Assembly (NCBI GenBank): GCA_002269645.1
Contig: NIVC01002932.1
Span: 12,415 to 76,414, forward strand
Length of the DNA stretch: 64,000 nucleotides
Reading direction: 5' to 3'
Origin: Macrostomum lignano
Taxonomy: Eukaryota
A program made the translations under genes and the position numbers. A model generated the notes under the pieces. It was not told the origin of the DNA and searched no databases. It saw nothing but the letters and a program-made list of their open reading frames with translations. This document shows, piece after piece, positions 53,230 through 63,218 of the stretch. Positions within the stretch are counted from its first letter, which is position 1. Each line of letters starts with the position of its first letter.

Positions 53230-54312
53230 ATGAACCATTTGCTTGGACCTGATATTGCTGCTCTTAAAAGTGAATTGTCGCTATTTGATCAAAGTCCTGT
53301 TCAGTTTAGTGTTTTGGATAATCGATATACTAACATTCAACCGCAACATGGTATTACAAAAGGATCACCTATCGAATTTGAAGTTGTGCCTGCAGGCGAT
53401 TTGTATTTGGATCTACAAGAAACTGTGCTCACGGTATGCTTCAGCGTTAGTGATAGTGAAGGTGAACCTATAGATGCAACGAAAAATTTTGTTTGTTTGA
53501 ATAATTTGGTTATTGGAACATTGTTTGAGGACGTTCAATTTACTATTGGCGATACTGTAGTTGAAGGTGGTAGTTTTATGTATCCATACAAGGCTATGCT
53601 TCTTACATTACTGGAATATGGACATACAGCTCAGAAGGCTGGTTTACTGCCGTGGGGGTTTTACAAGGATACAGCTGGTAAAATGAATGCAACAAGTGAA
53701 AACGATGGACGAACAAAGAGGCAGGCGCTCATTGCTAACAATAGGCGGTGCACTGTATCGGGGCCGTTATTCTTGGATTTGTTTCGTCAGCCTCGGTATC
53801 TACTATCAAAGACACCACTACGGATCAAGCTCATACCGGCAAAAAGTAAATTTGTCCTGAGCGGGTCAACATTAGAAGCTGGTGCGGTTTTAAAAGACTA
53901 TGAGATCAAGTTTTTGCGTGCAGAACTACGATTGCGGTTTGTTCAACCCTCGCCGAGTGTTATCAGTGCACATGCTCATGGACTTAAAAGTCACAATGCA
54001 TTATATCCGCACCGAAGTCTAAGCCTTGGTACGTTTACTATACCCGAGGATCGTCTAGCCATACGCATGAAAATTTGTTTCCTAGTGGGGTACCACGGCT
54101 TTTATTGATGGCAATCGTAAGCAACAAGGCATTCAATGGAAGCATGGACACAAATCCGTTCAACTTTGAGCATGCAAATGTGAGCAGCATTGGTGTGTTT
54201 GTGAATGGAGACTCGGTACCATCGCGTCCGCTGCAGACAAACTTTGGAGATGATTGTGTGACAGAGTATAATTTTTTGCTACAACAGCTTGGAATCTATC
54301 TACAGGGACGAG
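53230..54312 (+). pseudogene. Major capsid protein (double jelly-roll), 5' part; frameshift near 54046, interrupted by the nested element
   Basis: KSELSLF...PVQ.S...Y..I.P....SPIEF...YLDL; GFYKDTAG; LFLDLFRQ.RYL; NKAFNGSMDTNPFNFEH. Confidence 0.9.
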
Positions 54313-55536
54313 ACTACTAAGGACTGGTAGATCCGCCCTTTTTGGAGGTGGGGTGGGTGTCAACCCTCCTCGCCTCTCATTGGCTGGCGCGCGCGCCGCA
54401 GGCGCGTGGCGCCATCCAGGCGCCAATTAGGCGCCCATGCCAGGCGCACCCTCCCGATATGTACCCCGATATGTATGCCCTCCCTCCCGATATGTATGCC
54501 CACCCTCCCGATATGTACCCCGATATGTATGCCCTCCCTCCCGATATGTATGCCCTCCAGAGCAGCAGGCGCCCATGCTGCAGGCGCCCATGCCGCAGGC
54601 ACCCCGAGTGTACACTCTCGCGATATGTACACTCTACCACTCTCCCGATATGTAAGATATCTAGTCAGCGATATTAGGCTAGTGAAAACTACTTATAGTA
54701 GATGAAATTGCGTATATTTACATAAAAAGTAGATAAAACATATTGGTAGGTGTGAATAATGACGCATAATACATATTGGACCATATGAGCAGCAAAAACA
54801 CACAATGTAGGTGCATGGGCAGAAATAGACAAAGCAGGTACTGTAGGCGCTACATAGGTGGAAATACACACAGTATATTGCACACACTCTAGATTCCAAT
54901 TATGTAGGTGCATACATACACACAATGTAGGTGCAAATTGAGTATAATACAAGAAAATTACATAGCATATAATGTAGGCGCATTTTAAACGATACATTTT
55001 TGCATAATAACCCGCAGGTACAAATTTCAGTGCATAGGATAAAATACACACACTGGAAGTTAAGTATAATACAACATATGTATGCAAAATTAAGCATATA
55101 ATGTAGGTGCAAAGTAAAATATCCAGCCCAGGATATTCGAGACACGCCCCCAGAGCCAGGGCCGGGGATCCCAATGTACAGTGCGGGCGGAGTAACATAG
55201 AGAAATTCCTCCCCAGGGCCGGGGGATCCCAAGTACAGTTCAGGCAGAGAGCATTCCAATCCTCCCCAAATGGGGGGTTATCAAGGACCCCTCACATTGC
55301 ACAGGGCGGGCAGAATAACAGACCGCATACAAATAGGGGTTTTAGCGGATCCCAAGTACAGTGCGGTCCCGGGTGTCAAATGATGCCCCAATGTACAGTG
55401 GAGGTAGAGTAACAGACCGCATACAAAGAGAATTCCAGTCAAACTTTACAGCACCTCCCACGGGGCTTTAGTGGATCCCCAGAGGGTAGCTCTCCAAGTT
55501 GAGGGATCCCCCCGTGTGTTGCGAGGCCCAAGTACA
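54313..55536. repeat. Left terminal inverted repeat (~1.22 kb)
   Basis: Reverse complement of 61662-63009; mirrored spurious ORFs at 54689 (-) and 62206 (+). Confidence 0.93.
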
Positions 55537-55639
55537 ATGCGGGTGTAAAACCATTTTCATCCCCACGAGTCAAGGGATCCCAAGTGGGCACATAGGGGAA
55601 TCCCAGGCAGGGAGGCGTAAAAAGACAGATCCTTATCTT

Positions 55640-61438: not shown

Positions 61439-61661
61439 TTGAGGCGTGCCGCATCCGTACAGCGCGAACCCGATTTTTGGTAAGCTTAATTTCATATAAA
61501 TCGTATATAAATTACATATAATCTGTCTACATTGAATATTTTTTACTTTGACAGATGTTTCGAGAGCGCTGATGAGGAGGAGACTGCCCTGGCTGAAGAT
61601 CGCGCTCGAGTTTGACTGATAAGGGAATTTCTCTTTGTACTCTGTTACTCTCTGCATGCAC

Positions 61662-63009
61662 TGTACTTGGGCCTCGCAACACACTGGGGGGATCCCTCAA
61701 CTTGGAGAGCTACCCTCTGGGGATCCACTAAAACCCCGTGGAGCTGCGGTAAAGTTTGACTGGAATTCTCTTTGTATGCGGTCTGTTACTCTACCTCCAC
61801 TGTACATTGGGGCGGGATCCTTCCTCATTTAACACCCCGGAGCGCACTGTGCATTGGGGGGCGGGATTCCTTCATCATTTGACACCCGGGAGCGCACTGT
61901 ACTTGGGATCCGCTAAAACCCCTATTTGTATGCGGTCTGTTATTCTGCCCGCCCTGTGCAATGTGAGGGGTCCTTGATAACCCCCCATTTGGGGAGGATT
62001 GGAATGCTCTCTGCCTGAACTGTACTTGGGATCCCCCGGCCCTGGGGAGGAATTTCTCTATGTTACTCCGCCCGCACTGTACATTGGGATCCCCCGGCCC
62101 TGGCTCTGGGGGCGTGTCTCGAATATCCTGGGCTGGATATTTTACTTTGCACCTACATTATATGCTTAATTTTATACATATGTTGTATTATACTTAACTT
62201 CCAGTGTGTGTATTTTATCCTATGCACTGAAATTTGTACCTGCGGGTTATTATGCAAAAATGTATCGTTTAAAATGCGCCTACATTATATGCTATGTAAT
62301 TTTCTTGTATTATACTCAATTTGCACCTACATTGTGTGTATGTATGCACCTACATAATTGGAATCTAGAGTGTGTGCAATATACTGTGTGTATTTCCACC
62401 TATGTAGCGCCTACAGTACCTGCTTTGTCTATTTCTGCCCATGCACCTACATTGTGTGTTTTTGCTGCTCATATGGTCCAATATGTATTATGCGTCATTA
62501 TTCACACCTACCAATATGTTTTATCTACTTTTTATGTAAATATACGCAATTTCATCTACTATAAGTAGTTTTCACTAGCCTAATATCGCTGACTAGATAT
62601 CTTACATATCGGGAGAGTGGTAGAGTGTACATATCGCGAGAGTGTACACTCGGGGTGCCTGCGGCTCGGTAGAGTGTACACTCGGGGTGCCTGCGGCTCG
62701 GTAGAGTGTACACTCGGGGTGCCTGCGGCATGGGCGCCTGCAGCATGGGCGCCTGCTGCTCTGGAGGGCATACATATCGGGAGGGTGGGCATACATATCG
62801 GGGTACATATCGGGAGGGTGGGCATACATATCGGGAGGGAGGGCATACATATCGGGGTACATATCGGGAGGGTGCGCCTGCGGCATGGCGCCTAATTGGC
62901 GCCTGGATAGCGCCACGCGCCTGCGGCGCGCGCGCCAGCCAATGAGAGGCGAGGAGGGTTGACACCCACCCCACCTCCAAAAAGGGCGGATCTACCAGTC
63001 CATAGTAGT
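61662..63009. repeat. Right terminal inverted repeat (~1.35 kb)
   Basis: Reverse complement of the left TIR plus two extra 32-bp units and a ~60-bp duplication. Confidence 0.93.
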
Positions 63010-63218
63010 GACGAGATATTGGATTTAATATGCTGGATTACGCCAATGGTTACTCAATTTTTGCATTCAGTCTTGGAAGTGAACCTGGTGTCGGACGGGG
63101 AGTGCAACTGTATAAGGAAGGAAATGTAAAACTAGAGTTACGCTTCAATGCTGCAACTAGTACCGTGTACAACGTCATATTTGGAGGTATATTTGACCAA
63201 GCAACTGCAACTGACTGA
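63010..63218 (+). pseudogene. Major capsid protein, 3' part
   Basis: DYANGYSIFAFSL...GNVKLELRF...VIFGGIF, the typical Polinton major capsid C-terminus. Confidence 0.9.

Follow-up and report, generated by a model that had tools for sequence, protein, structure and literature searches.

A polymerase-bearing element with no recognised integrase or capsid gene, inserted into a Polinton capsid gene of Macrostomum lignano

How does a DNA element in which no integrase is recognised come to be inserted precisely, with a target-site duplication (TSD), into the capsid gene of a Polinton? The question is raised by the window analysed here, a stretch of 64,000 nucleotides of Macrostomum lignano (GCA_002269645.1, contig NIVC01002932.1, positions 12,415 to 76,414, forward strand). 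At 54313-63009 it holds an element of 8697 bp, flanked by direct copies of GACGAG, that splits the major capsid gene of a surrounding Polinton (the host Polinton) and contains a gene for a protein-primed DNA polymerase (pPolB) and a 165-aa open reading frame (ORF). The element is real and active-looking, and represents a new variant among Polinton-derived replicons. The explanation that we favour, and hold to be fairly probable, is a self-replicating linear element integrated in trans by the RVE integrases of Polintons.

Boundaries, copies and relatives of the element

The limits of the element are set by the following features.

54307..54312, left 6-bp TSD, GACGAG, present as a single GACGAG at the empty site (L073)
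63010..63015, right 6-bp TSD, GACGAG
54313..55540, + strand, left terminal inverted repeat (TIR), 1228 bp, starting 5'-ACTACTA
61658..63009, - strand, right TIR, 1352 bp
54320..54340, + strand, hypervariable 21-bp tip block (TIR bases 8-28), 16 variants among 36 ends

The long TIRs and the perfect TSD that an earlier note had read from this DNA are borne out. Aligned with each other, the TIRs agree at 89% over 1356 columns with 132 gaps, and segments of them are 95-100% complementary; the ends, 5'-ACTACT, are the reverse of the 5'-AGTAGT of the host Polinton. The empty site lies in another copy of the host Polinton (C340, L073), where a single GACGAG stands within an unbroken 440-aa ORF, in agreement with the note's expectation that excision restores the capsid gene. 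Mis-assembly is ruled out, because contig C4072 carries the same insertion as a second, separate assembly and 60-68% of the interior words of the element are found in 20 runs from nine studies.

The element belongs to a multi-copy family, here called family A, with recent and precise insertions. A whole-element query gave 408 candidates in the genome, 19 of which were scored. In all 19, both ends read 5'-ACTACTA and the TSD measures 6 bp; the copies occupy 18 different sites and are 8.5-9.8 kb long, with interior substitutions of 0.07-2.8% relative to the window copy in 15 others. The search with the palm exon of the polymerase, in which all 134 candidates were scored, yielded 128 matches, the first 50 rows being 91-100% identical, and the polymerase exon of family A is present at about 50 places in the genome. 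A PC4-like gene lies 3-5.5 kb from the palm exon in 42 of those first 50 rows.

Variation at the ends of family A is concentrated in TIR bases 8-28, where diversity reaches 0.46-0.54, compared with 0 at bases 1-7, 0.03 at bases 29-33 and about 0.1 at bases 34-78. Left and right tip blocks are unlike each other in 8 of 18 copies. The tip of a sister family, B, shows the same variable block (diversity 0.23-0.37), whereas the host Polinton tips over the same bases (13 reads, some from one place) vary only in a T run. No hairpin was detected in the block (mean z -0.16 and -0.18), whose hypervariability contrasts with the invariant host tips. We do not claim that families A and B share tip modules: the mean common word of 5.9 versus 4.7, reached by 2 of 500 shuffles, is a modest excess, and the reverse-complement sharing (7.0 versus 6.1, 0 of 200 shuffles) may reflect base runs destroyed by the shuffle. 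Large palindromic copies of these elements also occur (C1201 (L147), C1580, C3085, C4430, C2301, C3189), as either fold-back assembly artefacts or snap-back genomes; the one at C1201, an A-type TIR pair without polymerase, proved to be a non-coding palindrome.

Family B (L124-L146; e.g., C1159:306498-316043) ends in 5'-ACTACGTA, again an ACTAC end, with TIR pairs 6.2-9.5 kb apart and a TSD of 6 bp in nine of ten copies at eight sites. Its polymerase shares about 70% protein identity with that of family A and has six intron positions identical to it, at a distance where synonymous sites are saturated (pS about 0.74, dN about 0.28). No integrase or capsid match was obtained in the one near-complete family B copy that was read. 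The pPolB tree proposed in the earlier note places A and B together in one clade on a 1.5-long branch (FastTree, 35 rows). Their next relatives, among 1.84 billion representatives searched, are 36-42% identical. The three best full-length IMG/VR relatives (of 54 loci) are one-frame polymerases accompanied by integrase, protease or ATPase genes, two of the three with integrase; a single-protein scan of viral contigs found nothing. With the exonuclease exon as query, only the A and B identity classes appear (107 of 174 candidates scored). Judged by these sequences, A and B form an old lineage lacking integrase and capsid genes rather than a one-off deletion, because the sister family resembles family A in its intron positions, in the ACTAC start of its ends and in the 6-bp length of its TSDs, and the copy of it that was read likewise yielded neither integrase nor capsid.

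The absence of integration and virion genes was approached from several sides. Pfam recognises no integrase or capsid family in the two sets of interior frames scanned (54 and 8), and tblastn with the host integrase gives no match inside any element interior. The same holds for the four virion proteins of the host Polinton (major and minor capsid proteins, ATPase, protease), a test that relies on homology to the resident capsids because Pfam does not recognise them. Among the listed genes, an integrase or capsid gene stands within 20 kb of 2 of 106 A/B-type polymerase places, both of them the window insertion, versus 31 of 71 places of the endonuclease-VII type. This is strong but incomplete evidence: scoring covered 107 of 2255 integrase candidates and 96 of 475 capsid candidates, and the resulting lists did not include a Polinton beside the family A copy at C1412. 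Within these lists and the TIR-tip searches (40 of 260 and 40 of 216 candidates scored), the genome yielded no autonomous parent sharing both ends and polymerase with the element, and the simple deletion derivative that the note had weighed is thus not what the data suggest.

A spliced polymerase and its companion genes

The pPolB gene is read from the minus strand in seven coding exons, separated by six spliceosomal GT-AG introns.

60635..60695, - strand, exon 1, ATG at 60695, bounded by joint 59895/60635
59849..59895, - strand, exon 2, placed by splice joints
59214..59779, - strand, exon 3, terminal-protein-like region and vOTU-like Cys motif, placed by splice joints
57083..59004, - strand, exon 4, second half of the vOTU-like domain, zinc fingers, exonuclease, VSR-like insertion, start of motif A; PF03175 E 5e-14
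56469..57015, - strand, exon 5, SLYP of motif A to the start of motif B; PF03175 E 4.9e-13; placed by splice joints
56105..56397, - strand, exon 6, rest of motif B through DTDS of motif C
55655..56035, - strand, exon 7, end of palm/thumb, low coordinate approximate

The assignment as pPolB, one of the two gene labels given in the earlier note, is upheld by the matches of two exons to DNA_pol_B_2 (PF03175) and by the presence of motifs A, B and C. The vOTU and VSR labels in exon 4 are what we take its motifs to be; for the VSR-like insertion Pfam offers only Vsr at E 0.26. The terminal-protein and vOTU Cys labels of exon 3 presumably hold on the same kind of motif. They also follow the domain order terminal protein, vOTU, exonuclease, palm given in a passage of PMC11071308. 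An AlphaFold model of the long frame of family B (pLDDT 80.8) finds phi29 polymerase as its best match (E 1.6e-06), and UniRef relatives at 97-99% identity are labelled Macrostomum lignano. Exonuclease motifs are present in pPolB, and no helicase family is matched by Pfam in the element.

Transcripts of pPolB are spliced in runs that we guessed to be RNA; none of the matching runs is recorded as such. Introns 56397/56469, 57015/57083, 59004/59214 and 59779/59849 are skipped in all three of these runs, from three studies, and intron 59895/60635 in two of them, whereas a DNA run contains none of the five listed joints, seven further joints not being displayed; intron 56035/56105 is skipped within one contig. 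Three of the introns (57015/57083, 56397/56469, 56035/56105) interrupt motifs A, B and C or lie directly at them, and an unspliced message therefore cannot yield an active enzyme. The frame of the window copy breaks near 55666, 56308, 57330, 58505 and 59574. These breaks are probably assembly errors, because they are absent from four runs and, except one near 56308, from C4072, with the reservation that many copies are mixed in the runs. Across six exon stretches at 16 loci, 171 synonymous and 49 non-synonymous distinct variants give a ratio pN/pS of 0.086, counted with a context filter under which clustered changes are undercounted; the ratio indicates that family A pPolB is under purifying selection.

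The second gene of the element is transcribed divergently.

60941..61438, + strand, PC4-like ORF, 165 aa, putative single-stranded DNA-binding protein, divergent from pPolB, 31% identical to its PC4-like counterpart in a resident Polinton family (pairwise E 7e-11)

Its label, also given in the earlier note, is only a lead, suggested by three weak but concordant signals: Pfam PC4 at E 0.034, PC4 in the PDB at E 0.35, and PC4 as the top three Atlas clusters with scores of 0.86-0.87. A single-sequence fold was unusable (pLDDT 38). A third ORF of 336 aa (L035:1734-2744) characterises a long class, 9 of the 19 family A copies, and is absent from the other 10 and from the family B copy read. It is acidic and of low complexity, with a hydrophobic stretch near the C-terminus; no Pfam family or usable Atlas match was obtained, and its five homologues all come from the same species.

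Integration in trans and its alternatives

In the explanation we favour, a Polinton-derived lineage would have retained only the replication module, i.e., the spliced terminal protein-vOTU-pPolB gene, usually the PC4-like gene, and long TIRs, and would have lost the integrase and all virion genes. The spliced polyprotein would cleave off its own terminal protein, a linear extrachromosomal form would be copied by protein priming at the ACTACT repeat, and the RVE integrase of one among the many resident integrase-bearing Polintons would insert the element at loosely chosen sites. The first of these steps follows a passage of PMC11071308, in which release of the terminal protein from pPolB, for replication by protein priming, is attributed tentatively to the vOTU. 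Insertion by a Polinton RVE integrase fits because of the 6-bp TSD and of a central pyrimidine-purine step, which occurs in 10 of 18 (family A) and 7 of 8 TSDs, in 5 of 8 host Polinton flanks, and at a background of 0.24. That the copy in the window landed in the capsid gene is probably due to chance or to the proximity of helper DNA.

The distribution of insertion sites bears on the idea in the earlier note that the element knocks out the capsid of its helper. Polinton genes stand in or beside 2 of 18 family A sites, the window (itself the ascertained site) and C1412, and none was found in the flanks at the other 16 (tblastn, and Pfam on 42 long frames; the C1640 flank measures only 157 bp); capsid knock-out is therefore not a habit of the element. 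Moreover, the 440-aa capsid ORF of the host is 100% identical and unbroken at 12 places. A targeted disruption of capsid genes is thus not supported, yet 2 of 18 may exceed chance. The C1412 copy (L060:319-6295) has a different Polinton as its neighbour; the distance to the PLA2-like gene of that Polinton is ~180 bp, and its integrase and pPolB are adjacent.

The host Polinton itself extends from 40716 to slightly beyond the window, its right end being seen in C4072.

40716..40819, + strand, left TIR, 5'-AGTAGT, TSD GATGTG at 40710-40715
45976..46857, + strand, what is left of its own pPolB (N-terminal part), the catalytic ~3.15 kb being deleted at about 46851
51568..52728, + strand, RVE integrase with chromodomain, open frame (Pfam rve E 4.5e-08, Chromo E 1e-06)
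53230..54312, + strand, 5' part of the major capsid gene, single-base indel near 54043 that is absent in C4072 and C340
63010..63250, + strand, 3' part of the major capsid gene, protease gene next, many indels at the contig end, open in C4072

The capsid label is based on gene order and on 28% identity to the matching ORF of another resident Polinton family, together with motifs that we take to be capsid-like; the protein has no Pfam or PDB match. The open integrase and the missing catalytic part of the polymerase agree with the earlier note. Among 20 copies fetched, 16 show the polymerase deletion, three carry the extra 3.15 kb with an endonuclease-VII-type pPolB, and one is uninformative; by integrase rows, polymerase-bearing members make up 3 of 28. 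The integrase is 100% identical at 17 places. The host Polinton (40716-64000; L104-L122) thus represents a young, amplified sub-family that has lost the catalytic pPolB and kept its N-terminal part, the integrase and the virion genes, a mirror image of the studied element: integrase and capsid, no polymerase. Accessory genes are TBP-like (45324-45752), dUTPase (47294-47827), PLA2-like (47919-48362) and adenovirus protein-X-like (50158-50586).

Several observations weigh against integration by resident Polintons. The helper is hypothetical, and both integrase-bearing resident families whose ends were read start with 5'-AGTAGT, not ACTAC; integration in trans, as the earlier note proposed, stands as the best reading. 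Given that the Polinton next to the C1412 copy escaped the partial lists, they may also have overlooked an autonomous partner with ACTAC ends, and two TIR pairs without polymerase match, at C1197 and C271, lie outside the interiors read. Extrachromosomal DNA was not seen; the contigs matched to the element cover its interior and cannot reveal free ends. The central-step motif was chosen after viewing the data, and seven of the eight host 6-mers come from one flank only. The RNA nature of the runs that show splicing is a guess. As to the ends, AC termini are compatible with a Polinton integrase because intact Mavericks with 5'-(AC)3A ends exist, according to a passage of PMC8097293.

A more far-reaching version, a true Polintovirus satellite as the animal nuclear counterpart of transpovirons, is possible but doubtful. 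The element would then be a self-replicating, protein-capped linear DNA with host-style splicing that takes both integrase and capsids from Polintons, and the 21-bp tip block would owe its diversity to a role as an address, or as a signal for escaping factors of the helper or the host.

Alternatively, A and B may be reduced forms or genome segments of an autonomous ACTAC-ended element with its own integrase, which would be among the unscored candidates, missing from the assembly, or an exogenous virus. Only part of the candidates was scored, all three full-length IMG/VR relatives carry integrase, protease or ATPase genes, and the 5'-AC ends of intact Mavericks would suit such a parent. Nevertheless, with all 134 polymerase-exon candidates scored, the window insertion is the only one close to a listed integrase, the exonuclease exon reveals no third class, and the odd TIR pair at C1201 is the palindrome described above. 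The best candidate for a second segment, suggested by PC4-like homologues ~1 kb from a second integrase group, was rejected: this family C (L148, C2692:36300-44700) is a 16-kb Polinton with AGTAGT ends, a PC4-like gene (31% identical to that of the element) beside the integrase, a capsid and its own polymerase. We therefore regard an autonomous parent as unlikely. The family C copy at C2692 ends in an exon that is presumably lectin-like and is part of a 9.2-kb tandem duplication.

Insertion of a self-replicating element by a non-Polinton enzyme, e.g., some other DDE enzyme (transposase or integrase) or a domesticated host integrase leaving 6-bp duplications, appears more improbable again. Polinton integrases are not alone in producing 6-bp TSDs, and the element ends are unlike those of the two resident Polinton families read. 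However, TSD length and central-step bias match the host Polinton, the tip shares an A-x-T-A-x-T pattern with Polinton tips, and the family B TIR carries two Polinton-tip-like AGTAGTA words, head to head, at bases 108-138.

The complementing pair considered in the earlier note, in which the element would give its polymerase to the host Polinton and take integrase and capsid from it, has very little in its favour: 16 of 19 informative host copies lack the polymerase although 17 places retain an identical integrase, but no such pair is needed because the host has its own polymerase-bearing parent (three of the 19), with an unrelated polymerase. The host keeps the N-terminal part of this other polymerase type, which gives no significant BLASTP match to the element exons (best E 0.019), and the ends mismatch as well. 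Equally remote is an own, unrecognised integration activity in the unassigned 336-aa ORF or in the nuclease-like pPolB insertion, given the composition and patchy occurrence of that ORF, its lack of an integrase match, and the clean 6-bp duplications, which point to DDE-type strand transfer.

The remainder of the window contains a 2.7-kb element (14260-16944) that has inverted ends, with arms of 70 and 93 bp, and is flanked by direct repeats, a long terminal repeat retrotransposon with 158-bp repeats 97% identical and a 983-aa pol frame for reverse transcriptase, RNase H and integrase (3642-7898), and the genes for an amiloride-sensitive channel family member (9695-11760) and sestrin (29024-31679), amid many tandem repeat arrays.

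Relation to known replicons

Similar to Polintons/Mavericks of the VSR-insertion pPolB type, the element has a pPolB of the order terminal protein-vOTU-exonuclease-palm, long TIRs, a 6-bp TSD (the Polinton range is 5-8 bp, usually 6), a short terminal repeat, and a PC4-like gene in common with one resident Polinton family. It differs in its size of ~9 kb, in its hypervariable tips, and in that no integrase, capsid, ATPase or protease was found. Intact vertebrate Mavericks are described as intronless in part of PMC8097293, whereas the pPolB of the element has six introns; the terminal motifs listed there, (AGT)2, (AG)3 and (AC)3A, include neither the 5'-(ACT)2 of family A nor the end of family B. 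Polintons require an RVE integrase gene by the definition in a passage of PMC5499653. Lacking integrase and virion module and carrying introns, the element is by definition not a Polinton; it would function much as a nuclear satellite of Polintons does.

With the capsid-less Polintons of PMC4028283 the element shares the loss of the entire virion module; that class is defined by pPolB plus integrase, and the relevant passage names the loss of major capsid protein, protease and ATPase only, while the lineage described here also lacks the integrase. Transpovirons are likewise capsid-less linear TIR replicons depending on a helper virus, as the element may be. According to the corresponding passages of PMC11071308, they carry a pPolB-S1H fusion without exonuclease and parasitise giant viruses; the element has an exonuclease-bearing pPolB, no helicase match and introns, and integrates with a TSD into an animal genome. 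Fungal cytoplasmic and mitochondrial linear plasmids are pPolB replicons too, the cytoplasmic ones having arisen from (proto)polintons that lost their morphogenetic module (PMC11071308), but the pPolB of the element is spliced, and therefore nuclear, and its insertions are precise at many chromosomal sites. Ordinary non-autonomous transposon derivatives also depend on an enzyme supplied in trans, as we infer for the element; they have ends in common with a parent and no selected gene, whereas here no parent was found and the polymerase is selected, expressed and separated between families by a saturated synonymous distance.

The literature searched offers no description of such an element or of its probable lifestyle, own polymerase with borrowed integrase; Repbase, supplements and most subscription papers lay outside the search, so a catalogue entry may exist. 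The survey of Jeong et al. (10.1101/2023.08.22.554363) was, in the part available, limited to pPolB linked to integrase and is therefore blind to such elements, which may thus constitute a missed class.

In summary, the element separates the two functions that define Polintons: replication has been kept and selected, and integration would have been outsourced, over long evolutionary time. The worm is a laboratory animal; its copies of the element are expressed and spliced, its genome holds many near-identical Polintons, and an empty site occurs naturally. These traits make it possible to test for Polinton extrachromosomal intermediates or particles and to determine what the integrase reads at the DNA end. 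For the latter, the hypervariable tip block provides a natural mutagenesis of the very DNA end that the integrase would read.

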